Assembly: GCA_023267195.1 (NCBI GenBank)
Contig: JAHFNT010000004.1
Span: 603-64,602 of the forward strand
Direction: 5' to 3'
From: Candidatus Nomurabacteria bacterium
GTDB taxonomy: Bacteria > Patescibacteriota > Minisyncoccia > Phycocordibacterales > UBA9973
Length of the DNA stretch: 64,000 bases
The position numbers and the translations under genes are program-made. This document shows, one piece after another, positions 7,315 through 34,551 of the stretch (position 1 is its first letter; the number at the start of each line of letters is the position of its first letter). A model generated the notes under the pieces. That model was given only the letters and a program-made list of their open reading frames with translations. It was not told the origin of the DNA and did no database searches.

Positions 7315-7746
7315 TAGAACGCTATCCCCTAACTGTAAATTATTTTTATCCGCAAAGCCGGCCACAACCTCTAATACGTATTTTGCATTTTCATTCGGTC
7401 CGTAAGTTTCCGGATATGATTCCGGCATTGCATTTTTTTGTATATAAATAACTTTCAGGTTCTCATCAAACCAAATAATATCAATCGGAAAATTCATATC
7501 CTTCATCCAAAAAGAATACTTGCCGGGCTTTTCAAAAATAAACAGCATGCCGGTATCTTCCCCGAGTTCGCTTCTGCCACCCAAGCCCTTTTCTTTTTGT
7601 TCACTCGTTAAAGCCAACTCAACTTTTATTTCCTGATTCGCAATTTTTATATATTTGATGTTATCAAAACTTACGGCCGTCCAGAAATGATAACCGATAA
7701 AGAAAAGAATCACGAGCGCGGCAAAACCAGTTAAATAATTTTTCAT
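7303..7746 (-). CDS. DUF192 domain protein
   Basis: 147 aa. N-terminal TM, FWMKDMNFPIDIIWFD motif typical of DUF192/COG1430. Confidence 0.65.
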   Translation of the reverse strand: MKNYLTGFAALVILFFIGYHFWTAVSFDNIKYIKIANQEIKVELALTSEQKEKGLGGRSELGEDTGMLFIFEKPGKYSFWMKDMNFPIDIIWFDENLKVIYIQKNAMPESYPETYGPNENAKYVLEVVAGFADKNNLQLGDSVLFTY

Positions 7747-9134
7747 TAGTGATCTCCGTTAGTCCAGCCAAAAAGTTTCCCGATAGAATCTGGGCTTTCG
7801 CGCTTGCGAGCGACTGTGATCGTACCATCTTTGACTACAATTTTCATTGGAGCGGAGAGTAGGCAGTGGTGGGAAGAAAGTGAGTCTTGATATGCCCCAT
7901 TATCTAAAAGAGCAATCAGCTGATCTTGTCCTTCATGAAGTTTTGGTAGCAAAATATAATTTCCCCCCGCCGTGTATTTGTCATCAGAATCGCAAGTACT
8001 GCCCGCGAGCCAAACCGTCTTGAGCGAACCTTGCATATTGTTTACTGGGATGGTGTGCCATTTTTGGTGTATCGTCCAAGTATCTTTCAGATCATTGATA
8101 AAACTGCCGTCTATAATGTACCAGGCTTTGGCGTTGGCTTTGGGTATGGATTTTTCAGAAATTACTTTATAGATGGTTATTTGCGCCGGATCAACGATGT
8201 ACCACCCCCATTCTACTATCAAATTAGGATGTTTAATCCCCGCCTTGTCGGATAGATTTTTTAATAATTTTATTATGTTACTGGAAACAACTTTAGCGGT
8301 ATAAAACTTCTTCTTTTCATGCAGAATGCCGAATCCCCCGCCGATGTCTAGCGTGTCCAAGTTGGGATGGATCTTTTGCAACTGAGTATAAATACCAAAC
8401 CCATGCTTCACTGCTTCCAAGATGCTTTTCTGTGTTTTGATCTGAGAGCCCATGTGATAATGCATGACTTTAAGATTTTTCATTTTGGGCAAATCAAAGA
8501 CGTCTTTCTCGGGTATGCCAAAACGATCAAACTTTTTATCCCAATGGGTGTCAGCCTTGATGGATAAATCTACACGTATCCCTATATCTCCTTTATATTT
8601 AGATAATCTCTCTATCTCGTCTAAACTTTCTATAATAGGAACAATGGTCATGCCTTTGGCGCGCAATTCTTCTATCAAATCCAAGTATTGATCTGTTTTC
8701 GGTCCATTGCAAAGCACGCGGATTTTGCTGTTGAATTTTTCTCCTTCCCAGAGCTTTTTCACAATCCAAAGCTCGTTCCCAGAAGTTACTTCCAAATTTG
8801 CTCCTTCGGATAAAAGTGGCAAAATAAATTCCTTATTTTGGTTTACCTTCATCGGATAGTGATAAAAGAATTTGCCTTTATAATTGTAAATTTTAATATA
8901 TGCCTGAAAATAGCCCAGCAAGTCCTTCAGCCTGTCTTCTAGCACAAAAGGGAAAATAATCTGGAGTGGTGTGCCGTACTTATGCGCGAGATCATTGATA
9001 TTATAAATGTGGTTGCCTTCTATGGCTGTAAGTTCGCCGTCCTTGCTGACGCCGAAAAACTGAGTATTAAATTCATCTGCTCCTAGCTTCCAAAACTTTT
9101 TCCAATTCTTTCCAGATTTTTTTGTTTTTTTCAC
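7746..9134 (-). CDS. PLP-dependent Orn/Arg/DAP decarboxylase family protein (biosynthetic arginine decarboxylase-like)
   Basis: 462 aa. HYHMGSQ, DIGGGFG and CDSDD motifs of fold-type III decarboxylases. The N-terminus resembles SpeA. Confidence 0.65.
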   Translation of the reverse strand: MKKTKKSGKNWKKFWKLGADEFNTQFFGVSKDGELTAIEGNHIYNINDLAHKYGTPLQIIFPFVLEDRLKDLLGYFQAYIKIYNYKGKFFYHYPMKVNQNKEFILPLLSEGANLEVTSGNELWIVKKLWEGEKFNSKIRVLCNGPKTDQYLDLIEELRAKGMTIVPIIESLDEIERLSKYKGDIGIRVDLSIKADTHWDKKFDRFGIPEKDVFDLPKMKNLKVMHYHMGSQIKTQKSILEAVKHGFGIYTQLQKIHPNLDTLDIGGGFGILHEKKKFYTAKVVSSNIIKLLKNLSDKAGIKHPNLIVEWGWYIVDPAQITIYKVISEKSIPKANAKAWYIIDGSFINDLKDTWTIHQKWHTIPVNNMQGSLKTVWLAGSTCDSDDKYTAGGNYILLPKLHEGQDQLIALLDNGAYQDSLSSHHCLLSAPMKIVVKDGTITVARKRESPDSIGKLFGWTNGDH

Positions 9135-9204
9135 TTCCTTAATTTTAAGTTAAATTAAAAATTATTATAGCAACTAGTCAAAAAATTGCAATAGATTTTC
9201 CTCC

Positions 9205-9262
9205 ATAAACAGAGAAGCCCACCCGAGACGGAGAGGGTGAGCCTCTCGCGCCCCGGGTGGGC
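9205..9262 (-). terminator. intrinsic terminator after small ORF A
   Basis: GCCCACCCG...CGGGTGGGC stem enclosing a GAGAGG/CCTCTC sub-hairpin, followed on the minus strand by UUCUCUGUUUAU. Confidence 0.5.
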
Positions 9263-9266
9263 GATG

Positions 9267-9482
9267 CTACCACCTCAGATAGTTGTGTCTCTGCGCCGAT
9301 AGCTCGAAGCGCTTGAGGGCCTCCATATCCTCAAGCGTGAGGATGGCCACCCGAAACCCCCTATAGAACGAAGTCTCGGGCACAACGACCTCCATACTCT
9401 CCTCGTGGCTCGCGCGGAGAGTAGCCAGTCGAGGTATGGGAACAGTTTTGTCGCCCAGGGTCTCTTCCGGATCATTGGACAT
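9267..9482 (-). CDS. small GC-rich hypothetical protein (module A, about 71 aa from the ATG)
   Basis: SD AGGAG then ATG. Strongly GC-biased codons. Sits between promoter A and terminator A. No recognisable domain. Confidence 0.4.
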   Translation of the reverse strand: MSNDPEETLGDKTVPIPRLATLRASHEESMEVVVPETSFYRGFRVAILTLEDMEALKRFELSAQRHNYLRW

Positions 9483-9537
9483 TTTCACTCCTTCTGGGCC
9501 TTGTGGCCCAACTCAACGAACTTTTGAAACTACCGAC

Positions 9538-9566
9538 ATTGTACACCTCTTTGGCTTTTTTGTCAA
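9538..9566 (-). promoter_or_regulatory. near-consensus sigma70 promoter A (TTGACA-17-TACAAT)
   Basis: Minus strand TTGACAaaaaagccaaagaggtgTACAAT, followed by the conserved leader GUAGUUUCAAAAGUUCGUUGAGUUGGGCC-acaa-GGCCC hairpin and the SD. Confidence 0.6.
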
Positions 9567-9582
9567 GTTTGGCGGGTAATAT

Positions 9583-9612
9583 AAAGAAAAAAGGCCGCCG
9601 GTGAAGGCGACC
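9583..9612 (-). terminator. intrinsic terminator after small ORF B
   Basis: Minus strand GGUCGCC-uucacc-GGCGGCC followed by UUUUUUCUUU. Confidence 0.5.
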
Positions 9613-9644
9613 TGTTGCCGAGGACCGACGCGGTCTTTGGCGGA

Positions 9645-9791
9645 TTACTGCCCCCGTCCGAGGGCAGAGAGGAGACGCTCCGGGTAGAACACCCAGGGCA
9701 CTTCCTCGGGGGGCGGGGGCGAAGGAGGAAGGGGGCGGTGCCGGAGTTCCGGCACCCCGTTGTGAATTAGGATGTACCAGTGGACGTACAT
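9645..9791 (-). CDS. small GC-rich hypothetical protein (module B, about 48 aa from the internal ATG)
   Basis: ORF-track ORF 9645..9875 begins inside the -35 box of promoter B. The only start downstream of the predicted TSS is the ATG at 9791, with SD AAGGA 6 nt upstream. The product is Pro-rich. Confidence 0.3.
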   Translation of the reverse strand: MYVHWYILIHNGVPELRHRPLPPSPPPPEEVPWVFYPERLLSALGRGQ

Positions 9792-9846
9792 GCCATATCC
9801 TTTCCGGGCCAATAGGCCCAATTCGACGAACTTTGAAACTAACGGT

Positions 9847-9875
9847 ATTATACACCCTCCTGTATTTTTTGTCAA
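9847..9875 (-). promoter_or_regulatory. near-consensus sigma70 promoter B (TTGACA-17-TATAAT)
   Basis: Minus strand TTGACAaaaaatacaggagggtgTATAAT plus the same conserved leader with hairpin GGGCC-uauu-GGCCC. It is a paralogous copy of module A, about 75-80 percent identical over about 105 nt. Confidence 0.6.
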
Positions 9876-9898
9876 GCCCTTTGTGGGTAAAAGAAAAA

Positions 9899-9926
9899 CC
9901 GGGCTCCGCGATCGCGCGGGGCCCGG
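9899..9926 (-). terminator. intrinsic terminator after ORF C
   Basis: CCGGGCCCCGCG-cgat-CGCGGAGCCCGG hairpin followed on the minus strand by UUUUUCUUUU. Confidence 0.45.
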
Positions 9927-9953
9927 GGCGGGAGACGGACGAATCCGCTTTCC

Positions 9954-10163
9954 CTAGTACGAACGGCGTCCGAGATGGGAGAGATCGGGTACTTCCCCCA
10001 CCCCTTTCCGACGCCTGCGTTCGAACGTCGTCGGATGGAGTGTCGGTTCTGCCGAATCGGAAGAACCGAACCGGGAGAGGTCTGGAAAGCTTTCGTCGAT
10101 GTGTAGATCGTCCGCTAGGGACGATGAACACGATTCGGTCGGGATTTTGTTATCGTCTGGCAA
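9954..10163 (-). CDS. small GC-rich hypothetical protein (module C, TTG start)
   Basis: SD AAAGGAG 9 nt upstream of TTG. Lies directly downstream of tgt. Could be a spurious ORF in high-GC DNA. Confidence 0.25.
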   Translation of the reverse strand: MPDDNKIPTESCSSSLADDLHIDESFPDLSRFGSSDSAEPTLHPTTFERRRRKGVGEVPDLSHLGRRSY

Positions 10164-10212
10164 GATTTGGAACTCCTTTCTTTATTCAGGATAACACGAT
10201 TTAGAAATAAAA

Positions 10213-11430
10213 TCAACTATTTTTTATATATTGATCCAAAAATTCTTTTTTAAACTCAAAAAATTTATCATCCAATATGCTTTGTCTGATTTTTTTCACA
10301 AGGTTCACGATGAAATATAAATTGTGGATTGAAGCGAGAGTCCCCGCGAGCATTTCCTTCCCATGGAAAAGATGCGCGATGTAACTCTTCGTATAATGCT
10401 GACAAGTGTAACAGCCACAATCTTTTTCAATCGGCTCAAAGTCATTTCTAAATTTTGTATTCATAATTATTATTTTCCCAGACTTGGTGTAAATAGTTCC
10501 ATTCCGGCCAAGACGGGTCGGGGCGACACAATCAAAAAGATCCACGCCATTTTCTATCCCCATAAATAAATCTTCTGGTTCCCCTATCCCGAGCAAGTGT
10601 CTAGGCTTTTCTTCAGGCAAAATTTCATTGACCCATTTCACAGCGGTAGACATGTCTTCTTTCGCAAAACTTCCGCCGATACCAAAACCATCAAAGTCTA
10701 GATTTCCGATAAACTTGGCAGATTTTTTTCGCAAATTTTCATCTCGTCCGCCTTGAACAATGCCGAAAAGCGCAGAATCACCGCCTAATTTTCTATGTTC
10801 AATCAAACTCCTCTCCGCCCAGCGGTGCGTTCTTTCCAATGCTTCTTCTTGATACTGCAAATCTTCTGCTGGGCTCGTGCACTCATCAAAAGCAAAAATT
10901 ATATCCGCGCCTAAATTGTGCTGAATCTCAATTGATTTCTCTGGAGTAATGTAATGAATAGAGCCATCAAGATGCGACTTAAAGGAAACTCCATCTTGTC
11001 CTATCTTTGCCAGTCTGGGAGCATCACTATCATCAAAACGTTCTGGTATTAAAAGAGAAGGATCAGTGATTTTTGTAATTTTGGAAATATCTTTTCCGTA
11101 CGCAGCGCCTAAAGAAAAAACTTGAAAACCTCCGGAGTCAGTCATCGTCGGACCTGGCCAATTCATAAATTTCCCAATTCCGCCGGCGTCGCGCACGATC
11201 TCATCGCCCGGTTGTAAATATAAATGATAAGTATTGCCGAGGACTACTTGTGTGCCCGCCTCTCTTACTTGTTCTGGATTTAAAGATTTGACCGTCGCCT
11301 TCGTACCCACGGCGACGAAGGCTGGGGTTAAAATATCTCCATGCGGAGTTTTTAAAACACCCGCCCGCCCTAGACTATTTTTCAGTTTTTTCTCTATTTG
11401 AAAATTCATAAATTCACCCTCTCTGGTCAT
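10213..11430 (-). CDS. tgt: queuine tRNA-ribosyltransferase
   Basis: 405 aa, TIM-barrel Tgt motifs, C-terminal zinc site CGCYTCQH. Confidence 0.9.
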   Translation of the reverse strand: MTREGEFMNFQIEKKLKNSLGRAGVLKTPHGDILTPAFVAVGTKATVKSLNPEQVREAGTQVVLGNTYHLYLQPGDEIVRDAGGIGKFMNWPGPTMTDSGGFQVFSLGAAYGKDISKITKITDPSLLIPERFDDSDAPRLAKIGQDGVSFKSHLDGSIHYITPEKSIEIQHNLGADIIFAFDECTSPAEDLQYQEEALERTHRWAERSLIEHRKLGGDSALFGIVQGGRDENLRKKSAKFIGNLDFDGFGIGGSFAKEDMSTAVKWVNEILPEEKPRHLLGIGEPEDLFMGIENGVDLFDCVAPTRLGRNGTIYTKSGKIIIMNTKFRNDFEPIEKDCGCYTCQHYTKSYIAHLFHGKEMLAGTLASIHNLYFIVNLVKKIRQSILDDKFFEFKKEFLDQYIKNS

Positions 11431-32107: not shown

Positions 32108-32851
32108 TTATTTTCTTTGTTTCCATTCTTCAATTTTTTTATGATTTCCCGAAAGCAAAACTTTGGGCACTTTATAAGTTTTTATATTCTTGCCCTGAGC
32201 TTTACCGAAGGGGTATTTCAAAATTTCTGGACGAGTATAAACTTCACTGCTAGACACTCGCTCTTCCTCGAGAGATTCATATTTACCTAGTACACCCGGA
32301 ACTTGGCGAGAAATTGAATCGATCAAAACCATCGCAGGAAGTTCGCCGCCAGTTAAAACATAATCCCCGATTGAAATTTCTTCTGCCCTGAAGATCTTTT
32401 GCACTCGAGCGTCTATCCCCTCATATCGTCCGGCAATCAAAATAATATCCGTGTACTTTTTCTTAATCAATTTTTTTGCATAACTTGTATCAAACTTTTT
32501 GCCAGAGGGAGAAAAGAGAATTATTTTAATTCCCTCACCCCGTCTGCTTTGCATCCACCCCTCTCCATTTTTTTTTGAAATGGAGAGGGGGCGGGGGTGA
32601 GGCTTTAAAGCTACCTTCAAAGCTGCTTCAACTGCTTTAAGTATCGGCTCCGCACGCATGACCATGCCCGGCCCTCCGCCGTAGGGCTTGTCGTCAACTG
32701 GTCGATAATTATTTTTAGGTGCTTTTATAAAATCTCTGGGATTGTAAAATTTGAAATCTATCAATTTATTTTTAACCGCGCGCCCAAGAATAGACTCTTG
32801 TAAATAAGAATCAAACATTTCCGGAAAAATTGTGATTATATGAAAACGCAT
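32108..32851 (-). CDS. trmD: tRNA (guanine37-N1)-methyltransferase
   Basis: MRFHIITIFPEMF N-terminus and SPOUT fold motifs. Confidence 0.85.
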   Translation of the reverse strand: MRFHIITIFPEMFDSYLQESILGRAVKNKLIDFKFYNPRDFIKAPKNNYRPVDDKPYGGGPGMVMRAEPILKAVEAALKVALKPHPRPLSISKKNGEGWMQSRRGEGIKIILFSPSGKKFDTSYAKKLIKKKYTDIILIAGRYEGIDARVQKIFRAEEISIGDYVLTGGELPAMVLIDSISRQVPGVLGKYESLEEERVSSSEVYTRPEILKYPFGKAQGKNIKTYKVPKVLLSGNHKKIEEWKQRK

Positions 32852-32911
32852 ATCTTATACCTTATAGCTTATGTAAATAAAAAACAAGAAATATCACTAC
32901 TACAATTGCGA

Positions 32912-32949
32912 AGGCCCCGACGCTGTTCTCCTTTCGGAAGCGTCGGGGC
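32912..32949 (-). terminator. terminator of the GC-rich three-gene insert
   Basis: GGCCCCGACGCT...AGCGTCGGGGCC, a 12 bp stem followed on the minus strand by a T-rich tract. Confidence 0.5.
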
Positions 32950-32983
32950 CCGCGTGAGCGATATGCTCGATTGTGTGAACTAA

Positions 32984-33640
32984 CTACTGGGACGGCGAGA
33001 TCCCGGGGTGGGCATCTTCGCCGGTCGCCCCGCAGTTGAGGCACTTGTAGCGCACCCCACTGCGGACCATCAGGCTCCCGCACTCGTGGCAGTTGGGTGC
33101 GTCGGTGCTGTTCTGAAAGGGCTCGTTGTGTCCGCCAGAAACGATTGGACCAACACACGGATGCGGCTCCATACCGTCCACGGGCTGGAAATCGACCACC
33201 GGCTTGTGAGTCGGAGCCGCCACCGGCCTGACCGACAGGAACCGCGACGCAAGCCAGCGGACGATGTAGTCCACAAGACTCTCGGCGATGGGGATCTCCG
33301 GGTTCTTCGTGTAGCCCGACGGCTCGAACCGCATGTGGCTGAACTTCTCGACCAGGGCGTCGAGCGGCACGCCGTACTGGAGCGTGAGGGAGATGGCCGT
33401 CGCGAAAGCGTTCATGAGACCCGAGATCGTGGAGCCTTCCTTGGCCATCGTCAGGAAGATCTCCCCCGGGGTGCCGTCCTCGTAGAGGCCGACGGTGATG
33501 TAGCCCTCGTGCCCCGCGACCGAGAACTTGTGCGTGAGCGCGCGCCGCTCGTCGGGCAGCTTGCGGCGTCGTGGGGCGGCGTTGGCTCGCGCGAACGCGA
33601 GCACGACGCCCGGCGGGAAGAGAAATTCACCACTTTTCAT
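32984..33640 (-). CDS. TSCPD-domain protein with C-terminal zinc ribbon (stand-alone homolog of the class II RNR C-terminal domain)
   Basis: FSVAGHEGYITVGLYEDGTPGEIFLTMAKEGSTISGLMNAFATAISLTLQYGVPLDALVEKF matches the TSCPD domain. C-terminal CHECG...CLNCG. SD GAAGGAGGG. Strong GC3 bias. Confidence 0.65.
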   Translation of the reverse strand: MKSGEFLFPPGVVLAFARANAAPRRRKLPDERRALTHKFSVAGHEGYITVGLYEDGTPGEIFLTMAKEGSTISGLMNAFATAISLTLQYGVPLDALVEKFSHMRFEPSGYTKNPEIPIAESLVDYIVRWLASRFLSVRPVAAPTHKPVVDFQPVDGMEPHPCVGPIVSGGHNEPFQNSTDAPNCHECGSLMVRSGVRYKCLNCGATGEDAHPGISPSQ

Positions 33641-33664
33641 ATTAGGGCCCTCCTTCGGCCCCTT

Positions 33665-33892
33665 TTACCATTTTGCCCGGAGACGCCGGGCGGCGTTTCT
33701 GCGATCTCTCGCGCATGAATTTCGGTTTTTGCACCTAGGGCACTTGTAACATTCGTGCCCACCGTGCTTAACCAGCTCAGTGTAACTTCCACACAAGGTA
33801 CACCGAGCCTGTAGTGGATTGAGTGGATTGGTGGGCGACCAAAGGTAGTCGTAGCGGGACGTTGGGCTTAACCCAATTTCATCTCTTGGCAT
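33665..33892 (-). CDS. small zinc-ribbon protein (CxxC...CxxC)
   Basis: 75 aa. CTLCG...CPRC. SD GGGAGG. GC-rich. Confidence 0.5.
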   Translation of the reverse strand: MPRDEIGLSPTSRYDYLWSPTNPLNPLQARCTLCGSYTELVKHGGHECYKCPRCKNRNSCARDRRNAARRLRAKW

Positions 33893-34059
33893 GCCAACCT
33901 CCCGTTAATACTATTATTCGTAGTGACACAGCAGTCACTACAAAGCCCACAGACGCTGGGGCGGGTGAGAACCCCGCACTTCTCACACCTTACCAACGAA
34001 GGCGGCTTCATTCCCCATCCCGGAAACAGAAACTGCATAAGGAAGGATTTTAATGTCAT
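33868..34059 (-). CDS. small zinc-ribbon protein (CxxC...CxxC)
   Basis: CEKCG...CGLCSDCC. The internal ATG at 34059 is preceded by SD GAGGGGAGCGAGG. The ORF-track start at 34101 would be leaderless from the promoter. Confidence 0.45.
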   Translation of the reverse strand: MTLKSFLMQFLFPGWGMKPPSLVRCEKCGVLTRPSVCGLCSDCCVTTNNSINGRLACQEMKLG

Positions 34060-34105
34060 CCTCGCTCCCCTCGCTTTCTTTTTTTGTTTTAGGAACTTCA
34101 TCTAA

Positions 34106-34134
34106 AAATTACAATTTTACAGAGATTATGTCAA
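34106..34134 (-). promoter_or_regulatory. promoter of the GC-rich insert (TTGACA-17-TAATTT)
   Basis: Minus strand TTGACAtaatctctgtaaaattgTAATTTttagATG. Confidence 0.45.
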
Positions 34135-34144
34135 CACAAACAAA

Positions 34145-34166
34145 AACACCCCCTCATGGGGGTGTT
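34145..34166. terminator. bidirectional terminator after the KH-domain gene
   Basis: AACACCCCC-tcat-GGGGGTGTT flanked by T runs on both strands. Confidence 0.55.
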
Positions 34167-34191
34167 TTTGTTGTTAAAGCCTAGTGCCTAT

Positions 34192-34551
34192 TTATATTCC
34201 TTTCAACTCTTCCATTGCCTCGTCCACAGTCTTAAGGACTGAAGGCGCTGCGCCCATTCCGCTTCCTGTAGATCCCATGGGTCTCTCTGGTCTCATACTT
34301 CCTGCCGGTTCATTGATTTTCAGATTAACACGAGCGTTGTTCTTCATCCCAATGATGCGAAGCAAGGTGCGAATAGCTTTCGCGGTATTGCCCATTCTGC
34401 CGATAATCTTGCCCATATCGGCAGGATTTACGGTTAGAGTGATGAGCACGCCCATTTCGTCCACCGTCCTTTCGATTTTCACATCGTTTGGATTGTCGAC
34501 TAGAGCCTTCACTACATACTCCAGGAATATCTTATCAGCTTCTTCTTGCAT
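34192..34551 (-). CDS. KH-domain RNA-binding protein (YlqC/UPF0109 family)
   Basis: GKIIGRMGNTAKAIRTLLR KH motif. Conserved position after rpsP. Confidence 0.75.
   Translation of the reverse strand: MQEEADKIFLEYVVKALVDNPNDVKIERTVDEMGVLITLTVNPADMGKIIGRMGNTAKAIRTLLRIIGMKNNARVNLKINEPAGSMRPERPMGSTGSGMGAAPSVLKTVDEAMEELKGI

Follow-up and report, generated by a model that had tools for sequence, protein, structure and literature searches.

An orphan, truncated NrdJ cysteine-rich domain captured in an accessory cassette at the KH-trmD junction of a Candidatus Nomurabacteria genome

Introduction

Short fragments of foreign genes are captured by naturally transformable bacteria through illegitimate or homology-facilitated recombination. 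Here we analyse a piece of foreign DNA in a Candidatus Nomurabacteria/Paceibacterota genome, a member of the candidate phyla radiation (CPR), in which an orphan, truncated cysteine-rich domain (CRD) of the ribonucleotide reductase (RNR) NrdJ is captured in a small accessory cassette between a KH-domain gene (KH) and trmD; as such, the object is a variant of known things. The locus lies in a stretch of 64,000 nucleotides (nt) of contig JAHFNT010000004.1 (assembly GCA_023267195.1), which we call the window and whose positions are used as coordinates throughout; the DNA inserted between the two genes is referred to as the island. A preliminary description made from the window alone had interpreted the island as a self-contained GC-rich operon for a stand-alone TSCPD protein and two zinc-ribbon proteins.

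The closest described system is the C-terminal region of class II RNRs, 150-220 amino acids (aa) long, which is the same as the NrdJb protein of the split NrdJa+b enzymes (PMC5704485). This CRD contains six invariant cysteines in the pattern C-x2-C-x9-C-x2-C-x2-C-x5-C (Loderer et al. 2017, PMC5704485): Cys1, 2, 4 and 5 are the proposed Zn ligands, and Cys3 and Cys6 are proposed as the redox couple by which the active site is reduced again. Turnover driven by tris(2-carboxyethyl)phosphine (TCEP) in the NrdJ of Stackebrandtia nassauensis depends on all six; the CRD also mediates oligomerisation in NrdJd, and when expressed separately it did not reconstitute the activity of NrdJ-deltaCRD in vitro (PMC5704485).

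Results and Discussion

Identity of the 218-aa open reading frame

The three minus-strand open reading frames (ORFs) of the preliminary description exist as reported, including the 25-nt overlap of the two small ones, here named zr77 and zr75. The largest, of 218 aa, begins with MKSGEFLFPPG... and continues with a TSCPD-like core (residues 27-138), a variable linker, a Zn ribbon (C184/C187/C200/C203) and the terminal residues GEDAHPGISPSQ. A search with hidden Markov models (HMMs), which had been proposed as a check of the TSCPD assignment, agrees with it: Pfam TSCPD (PF12637) is matched over residues 44-131 with 50.1 bits against a gathering cut-off of 22.8 (E=3.4e-13). The NCBIfam B12-RNR model NF005122 is matched at positions 737-856 of 960 plus the tail (E=2.6e-61), far under the cut-off for the full-length protein, and a local CRD HMM is matched with 296 bits over positions 1-188 of 192. 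Homologues number 7,564, and the best are NrdJ C-termini at 60-70% identity, from clusters that include full-length proteins of 930-990 aa; in an NrdJ of 933 aa, the part aligned with the ORF is residues 747-929. Judged from these alignments, the 218-aa ORF comprises almost all of the C-terminal CRD, equivalent to NrdJb, of a B12-dependent (class II) RNR. The combination of TSCPD core and ribbon is therefore not a fusion of a stand-alone TSCPD domain with a ribbon, as had been thought, but the native NrdJ CRD, present here as a truncated internal fragment. The named close homologues belong to Thermoanaerobaculia, Vicinamibacteria and other Acidobacteriota, and not to the actinobacteria suggested at first.

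With the CRD of NrdJd (S. nassauensis model, PMC5704485) the ORF shares homology over essentially the whole 150-220-aa domain, including the core motifs RRKLPDER..THKF..GHEGY..PGEIF..KEGST..LQYGVPL..RFEP and the terminal Zn ribbon CHECGS..YKCLNCG; unlike it, the island ORF has no catalytic barrel, no Cys3 (R197), no Cys6 and no GV(I/V)SRE motif after the core, ends 4 codons early, and carries new N- and C-terminal extensions. As in NrdJb of the Pseudomonas aeruginosa type, a separate ORF encodes the CRD alone, but here it is an internal piece of a fused-type gene, with no nrdJa in 64 kb and with the redox cysteines gone. Like the stand-alone TSCPD proteins (PF12637) it scores above the Pfam gathering threshold; unlike them it falls in the NrdJ-attached branch.

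An AlphaFold model based on an alignment of 36 sequences gives the core and the ribbon a predicted local distance difference test (pLDDT) score of about 85, with a disordered linker joining them. No solved CRD structure was found in a sequence search of the PDB, and a fold search against the PDB (Foldseek) yielded a weak IscU-like resemblance (E about 0.1) and no match at E≤0.001. The top-scoring database match, a 325-aa protein from a JGI contig (P0001), is a duplicated TSCPD-type module, with two tandem CRD cores (RRRLP..THKF..GHEGY..RWLAS) and no zinc-finger tail.

Extent, source and decay of the captured fragment

Homology to NrdJ in tblastn searches is confined to window positions 33562-33023, and searches of the whole 64 kb by tblastn, with full-length NrdJ and with the alpha subunit of a class I enzyme, found no RNR barrel. 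At the nucleotide level the core is 88.8, 86.3 and 85.7% identical to three nrdJ loci with a GC content of 0.72, 0.68 and 0.71, respectively (L087; L090, GCA_036733665.1; L088), and the Zn-finger tail is 78-84% identical to the donor-like loci. These identities point to a high-GC Acidobacteriota-like donor as the source of the fragment. The composition of the island bears out the GC-rich, strongly GC3-biased character (GC3, GC at third codon positions) noticed at first sight: GC is 0.56-0.78 in 50-nt windows across about 32900-33700, as compared with a mean of 0.398 for the whole window, and the 218-aa ORF has a GC of 0.653 and a GC3 of 0.858, as compared with about 0.40 and 0.36-0.38 for the host genes trmD, rpoB and rpoC. 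The two small ORFs are intermediate (zr77, GC 0.47 and GC3 0.58; zr75, 0.53 and 0.54). The horizontal origin from a high-GC donor that had been proposed has also held up, with the island absent from 80 relatives and its core showing 86-89% nt identity to nrdJ of GC 0.68-0.72. By the test for a genomic islet, both deviant composition and absence from close relatives are found.

Every donor gene ends in ...CGxTSGCS-stop, while the homology of the island stops after ...CLNCGAT, 4 codons (SGCS) before the donor stop, and gives way to unrelated GC-rich sequence (GEDAHPGISPSQ-stop); Cys6 was thus lost at the capture breakpoint. At the other end, the first 20 or so residues of the ORF, with its ATG and Shine-Dalgarno (SD) sequence (AAGGAGGG, 7 nt upstream of ATG 33640), lie in non-nrdJ sequence, which in the start region is AT-rich and host-like, and the ORF is for this reason a chimera. 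On either side of the fragment, 33586-33700 and 32905-33023 are likewise GC-rich; the possibility that these flanks or the 3' hairpin derive from the region downstream of the donor nrdJ was discarded, as there is no similarity to five donor-like loci.

Inside the fragment, Cys3 has become Arg197 through a single TGC-to-CGC change, so that the six-cysteine pattern has R197 at position 3 and lacks position 6, but retains each of the four proposed Zn ligands (C184, C187, C200, C203). Among 98 columns that are at least 90% conserved, the ORF has 7 mismatches, as compared with a median of 1 and a 90th percentile of 2 in 108 homologues; the deviations include D77N, K120E, F127V and the loss of the GV(I/V)SRE motif. 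On the island branch, the core has undergone 21 synonymous and 7 non-synonymous changes: most of the divergence thus arose under purifying selection, presumably ahead of the transfer. Taken with the unameliorated GC3, this excess indicates that the transfer is recent and that most of the divergence is older.

These data also bear on the possibility that a complete nrdJb from a split nrdJa+b pair was transferred and serves a host NrdJa in trans as its reductant-shuttle subunit. The length of 218 aa fits the 150-220 aa of a CRD or NrdJb, and stand-alone TSCPD ORFs of about 190 aa with the same start motif adjoin RNR-barrel ORFs in some contigs (L084). We could not use such stand-alone database matches of about 190 aa as proof of a natural nrdJb, as most of them are in frameshift-ridden long-read contigs. 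The last 4 codons and both redox cysteines are missing where all six cysteines are required, which by itself largely refutes this explanation; moreover, the nearest homologues are fused NrdJ proteins of 930-990 aa and there is no nrdJa in 64 kb, and we consider it very improbable.

The reading that we favour, and hold to be rather probable, is that the 218-aa ORF is a young, neutral or nearly neutral gene remnant, possibly transcribed and translated. The GC-rich core of the 1.34-kb accessory cassette at the KH-trmD junction is a 562-bp internal piece of nrdJ from a high-GC Acidobacteriota-like donor; a new ATG, preceded by a good SD, is in frame with this piece, and the result is the 218-aa chimeric ORF. 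Insertion would have been by illegitimate, possibly transformation-type, recombination of environmental or host DNA; there are neither integrase or transposase genes in the 1.34 kb nor target-site duplications (only short chance-level repeats), and no tRNA is nearby; acquisition would be recent because the codon usage is unameliorated. The product, if transcribed and translated from the cassette signals, would be a Zn-binding protein without established function; we infer that it cannot act as an RNR electron shuttle, since Cys3 and Cys6, the proposed redox pair, are lost and all six cysteines are needed in the S. nassauensis NrdJ.

Like the fragments captured by transformable bacteria, the nrdJ fragment is a 0.56 kb sub-genic foreign piece in an intergenic hot spot, with no integrase, transposase or target-site duplications; unlike them, its mechanism can only be deduced, and its flanks are GC-rich as well. 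As a single locus this is a modest case of a CPR bacterium with a recently captured sub-genic piece from another phylum, and the 86-89% nt match to Acidobacteriota-type nrdJ is a testable clue to the DNA-exchange partner or host of an uncultured episymbiont.

Reality and annotation of the island

The exact KH protein was found on contigs of three other assemblies. Over the same 3 kb, island junctions included, two of these contigs (ERZ27279942 and Logan SRR14366791) match the window with 100% identity, and the Logan contig runs from KH through into the nrdJ fragment; the third (ERZ27279977) is 99.97% identical over 3 kb, with a single-base gap in trmD as the sole difference. An assembly chimera is ruled out because independent assemblies share identical junctions. 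The single-base gap of the ERZ27279977 contig (L002:5299-6041) splits its trmD into calls of 109 and 148 aa; either the assembly is wrong at this point, or an essential gene is frameshifted at the strain level.

The preliminary description had itself raised the prospect that the ORFs might be artefacts of a structured RNA. The abrupt GC shift and the long ORFs on both strands would suit an artefact of this kind, or a chimera between CPR and Acidobacteria DNA. Set against this, the same junctions occur in contigs from three different runs and assemblers, there is no gathering-level Rfam match in the island and even at E≤1 nothing beyond terminator-driven, sub-threshold matches (34074-34209), and the protein homology is strong, is specific to one strand and goes with a 3:1 excess of synonymous changes; an artefact is barely credible. 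A search by blastn against plasmids and phages matched only the nrdJ core, at 75% or less, and left the remainder of the island unmatched.

In public assemblies the gene callers have annotated an ORF antisense to the 218-aa frame (Table 1; L001:6834-7391(-) and L002:4432-5142(-), 185 or 236 aa, with no Pfam match), and have left uncalled the NrdJ-homologous frame and both mini-ORFs. Since the NrdJ homology lies on the opposite strand, the antisense call is probably not a gene but a shadow ORF of the kind typical of GC-rich DNA. An exact look-up of the 218-aa product found no record, because the callers took the opposite strand. The present analysis corrects what is likely a mis-annotation of the locus in public assemblies.

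The KH-trmD junction in related genomes

The host gene order is rpsP-KH-trmD-rpoB-rpoC on the minus strand, with rpsP upstream and with rpoB and rpoC directly downstream of trmD. We have studied this junction with a TrmD-based scan of metagenome-assembled genomes (MAGs) of Candidatus Nomurabacteria, Paceibacterota and Patescibacteria, which yielded 80 loci, 72 of them holding both KH and trmD. The CRD ORF, zr75 and zr77 are absent from all 80. In 53 of the 72 loci the spacer is 179 bp or less, often 2-4 bp (the usual distance is 2-130 bp), and in the closest relative (L004, TrmD 84% identical) KH and trmD are 2-4 bp apart. The remaining 19 loci have inserts of 255-2,397 bp with mutually unrelated content, which includes an NYN domain (L025, L032), PD-(D/E)XK_3 (L034), a PaaX/Cas2-like protein (L007) and a 709-aa protein of surface type (L049), besides orphan peptides in L006, L010 and L011. 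The short inserts of L006, L010, L011 and L023 share the order seen in the window, namely KH stop, terminator, TTGAC-like site, SD, small ORF, hairpin and trmD, and the first 20 or so nt after the KH stop are common to the window and L006. The KH-trmD junction is a hot spot for small self-contained accessory cassettes in Nomurabacteria/Paceibacterota, one of which has most recently gained the nrdJ fragment. Located inside the rpsP-KH-trmD-rpoBC cluster, the hot spot harbours accessory mini-genes of various kinds and breaks the coupling of trmD and rpoBC to the upstream promoter.

These comparisons do not sustain the view that the island occupies a site where rimM is expected. No rimM lies between KH and trmD in any of the 72 relatives, and none of the three island ORFs matches RimM or a PRC barrel in Pfam or NCBIfam; since S16-KH-trmD-rpoB is the norm in the clade and there is no RimM among the inserts, rimM is not expected and nothing has been displaced, from which it follows that the placement implies no link to ribosome or tRNA maturation, as had been surmised. 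In favour of a rimM substitute, or of a role in such maturation, one could cite the position within the rpsP-KH-trmD cluster, the basic tail of zr75 and a very weak L32-like match of zr77 (E=0.063). Besides the lack of rimM in the relatives, the nearest of which have KH and trmD 2-4 bp apart, unrelated accessory genes sit at the site in other lineages and the island is confined to one strain or species, which makes this role exceedingly improbable.

One distant relative (L082, TrmD 54% identical) has a class I-like RNR pair just upstream of trmD (L082:1451-4483), whose alpha-like protein, of 573 aa, ends in CVGCEA. This hints that the clade may do without NrdJ; a literature search for NrdJ in CPR found nothing.

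The small cysteine-rich ORFs

The array of zr75, C-x2-C-x13-C-x2-C-x2-C-x5-C, has six cysteines and includes CYKC. Neither zr75 nor zr77 has homologues in a word-indexed search, and zr75 has none in a metagenome scan either; an exhaustive phmmer search with zr75 returned only eukaryotic tandem-repeat proteins, with spurious multi-stretch sums. Nothing meaningful was found for zr75, zr77 or the L023 ORF described below in Pfam, NCBIfam, PHROGs or PADLOC. ORF length is little evidence at 50% GC, and ORFs of 60-77 aa occur on both strands here. The frequency of the cysteine patterns was determined in the six-frame ORFs (12,616 ORFs, 867 k residues) of the window plus the 80 related loci: the six-Cys pattern C..C-x9-13-C..C..C-x5-C occurs in only two of them, zr75 and an ORF in the KH-trmD spacer of L023, and a five-Cys version in four, adding zr77 and one other. 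Because both zr77 and zr75 have SDs and very rare cysteine arrays, we argue that they code, or did so until recently, for Zn fingers and are part of the same cassette.

The L023 ORF (L023:4598-4918, CAZADR010000001.1) encodes 106 aa, with its own promoter-like site, SD and terminator, and contains two tandem NrdJ-tail-like fingers, CRHC..CCFVCPACGNTDGCS and CKDC..NGLCYHSEDCGH, one of which ends in GCS. An NrdJ-tail HMM matches it with 22 bits (E=5.7e-5), and 0 of 5,000 shuffles score as well; on this score its NrdJ-tail-like label can be taken as established. For zr77 (7 bits, E=2.9, 9 of 5,000 shuffles as good) and zr75 (4-6 bits, E=25, 65 of 5,000) the same label is suggestive. The GC3 of the L023 ORF is 0.69, as compared with 0.34 for the neighbouring trmD, it has no DNA similarity to the island, and a metagenome scan found no homologues; its foreign GC3 and the lack of DNA similarity indicate an independent acquisition at the same site. 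Only one feature of this locus is truly puzzling, namely that two lineages have NrdJ-tail-like fingers at one and the same site, which would matter if it were systematic; homology-facilitated capture on a resident finger and selection for fingers are both possibilities.

Two further relationships were considered and rejected. zr75 and zr77 are not significantly similar to each other (631 of 5,000 shuffles as good), and neither are the N-termini of the 218-aa ORF (MKSGEFLFPPG) and of zr77 (..FLMQFLFPG), be it as DNA (1,077 of 2,000 shuffles) or as protein (148 of 5,000).

Signals of the cassette

The SDs reported before ATG 33640 and ATG 33892 are present, the latter being GGGAGG, 5 nt upstream of the zr75 start. 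The cassette had also been credited with its own promoter: a TTGACA-17-TAATTT site exists, with a perfect -35, but its strength was overstated, as the -10 matches at 3 of 6 positions and a consensus promoter scan does not call the site. Since it ends 4 nt ahead of ATG 34101, zr77 more likely begins at ATG 34059 (63 aa, with its own SD, GAGGGGAG) if this promoter is used. TTGAC-like sites likewise follow the KH terminator in L023, L011, L010 and L006, and relatives with KH-trmD spacers share the architecture of that terminator.

Of the 12-bp-stem terminator described at the 3' end of the cassette, the stem is real and stable (fold z = -4.5), but the 14-nt loop and the absence of an adjacent U-run distinguish it from a canonical intrinsic terminator, and it was not called in an intrinsic-terminator scan. 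An inverted repeat at the ribosome binding site of the 218-aa ORF was examined as a regulatory structure and dismissed (z only -2.2, minimum free energy fold without that pairing). An integron attC nature of the cassette hairpins was likewise set aside, for lack of an integrase and of signs of a core site. The terminator after KH is strong, and the only hairpin ahead of trmD has no U-run; because of this arrangement, trmD-rpoB-rpoC may rely in this strain on read-through from the cassette promoter, or else on a promoter within the last 60 or so nt (32852-32912) that has escaped recognition.

Table 1. Features of the KH-trmD region in window coordinates.
Feature	Position	Strand	Remarks
trmD	32108-32851	-	PF01746, E=4e-39
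Whole insert, KH-gene stop to trmD start	32852-34191	-	1,340 bp; nearest relative has a 4 bp spacer instead
GC-rich 12-bp-stem hairpin, 3' of chimeric ORF	32913-32950	-	arms 32913-32924 / 32939-32950
Chimeric 218-aa ORF	32984-33640	-	about 20 novel N-terminal aa + NrdJ CRD + 12 novel C-terminal aa
Antisense 'shadow' ORF, 236 aa	33008-33718	+	gene-caller annotation in public assemblies
nrdJ-derived DNA fragment, 562 bp	33024-33585	-	blastn, tblastn
zr75, small Cys-rich ORF, 75 aa	33665-33892	-	SD GGGAGG, basic C-terminal tail
zr77, small Cys-rich ORF, 77 aa from ATG 34101	33868-34101	-	Cys array CEKCG-x7-CGLCSDCC
Promoter-like site TTGACA-17-TAATTT	34106-34134	-	-35 TTGACA 34134-34129, -10 TAATTT 34111-34106
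Intrinsic terminator of rpsP-KH unit	34139-34172	-	perfect 15-nt arms, 4-nt loop, U-run
KH gene, khpA-like (KhpA-type)	34192-34551	-	PF13083, E=6e-21

Remnant or functional module

Several observations weigh against the reading of the 218-aa ORF as a neutral remnant. The ORF is intact, with a well-placed SD, and keeps 91 of the 98 conserved positions and the four proposed Zn ligands. The two cysteines that are gone are precisely those of the proposed redox pair, for which the chance is 1 in 15 when any two of the six drop out at random; instead of decay, selection for a CRD that is Zn-bound but redox-dead could lie behind this. There is an NrdJ-tail-like ORF at the same junction in L023 (E=5.7e-5), and both mini-ORFs have tail-like Cys arrays; purely random capture does not easily explain the recurrence of such arrays. 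Finally, a host NrdJ without a CRD is possible outside the 64-kb window.

One way to accommodate these points, and the foremost alternative, is a neofunctionalised module, which we regard as unlikely. The redox-dead CRD would be kept for binding Zn and, by virtue of the CRD's function in oligomerisation, an RNR or other partner, together with the mini Zn-finger proteins; zr75, with its full six-Cys array, could supply a thiol pair, and the three genes could form a small regulatory or redox unit. This would account for intact ORFs with SDs, for the loss of only the proposed redox pair with all four Zn ligands retained, for a Zn ribbon and core that are modelled confidently, for a six-Cys pattern limited to zr75 and the L023 ORF among 12,616 ORFs, and for two NrdJ-tail-like fingers at the same locus in L023; it is also in keeping with the finding that the CRD mediates oligomerisation in NrdJd (PMC5704485). 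The same hypothesis is challenged by the excess of substitutions at near-invariant positions, by the fact that Cys6 was lost through the capture breakpoint and not by a selected substitution, and by the failure of a separate CRD to reconstitute NrdJ-deltaCRD activity in vitro (PMC5704485). In addition, zr75 and zr77 have no homologues in the searches made, their matches to the CRD-tail HMM are not significant alone (E=25 and E=2.9), no NrdJ is encoded in the 64-kb window, and the distant relative L082 has a class I-like RNR.

A second, still less likely possibility is that the khpA-trmD junction of Nomurabacteria is a site of repeated uptake of nrdJ 3' ends, which are made into small zinc-finger proteins of the NrdJ-tail type. 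In its favour are the three tandem tail-like Cys arrays of the window (zr77, zr75 and the CRD ORF) and the foreign-GC two-finger ORF at the same site in the unrelated lineage L023. A resident tail-like finger that anchors incoming nrdJ DNA would fit a 3' breakpoint inside the finger. If this were so, the Acidobacteriota-type fragment, with its 89% identity, could also reveal which organism is the episymbiont's physical host or neighbour, and the redox-dead CRD might act on an NrdJ, for example in oligomerisation or as a decoy subunit.

Other GC-rich segments of the window

A second GC-rich islet (GC 0.55-0.65) is found at 9170-10200 on the minus strand, between an ORF at 7746-9134 and a tgt-like gene at 10213-11430. 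It contains two direct repeats of about 76 nt, 310 bp apart (9492-9567 and 9802-9876), each of which consists of a strong TTGACA-17-TA(C/T)AAT promoter and a conserved leader that contains a GGGCC-N4-GGCCC hairpin, together with an SD; behind each repeat comes a small orphan ORF that is rich in GC, and a third small ORF lies at 9954-10163. Searches of Rfam, Pfam, PADLOC and plasmids gave no matches to this islet, which may be an accessory mini-gene cassette of the kind present at the KH-trmD junction. Within trmD, an internal segment (32530-32705) is locally GC-rich (0.56) and encodes a lineage-variable loop (..KPHPRPLSISKKNGEGWMQSRRGEG..), whereby TrmD, at 247 aa, is longer than in most relatives.

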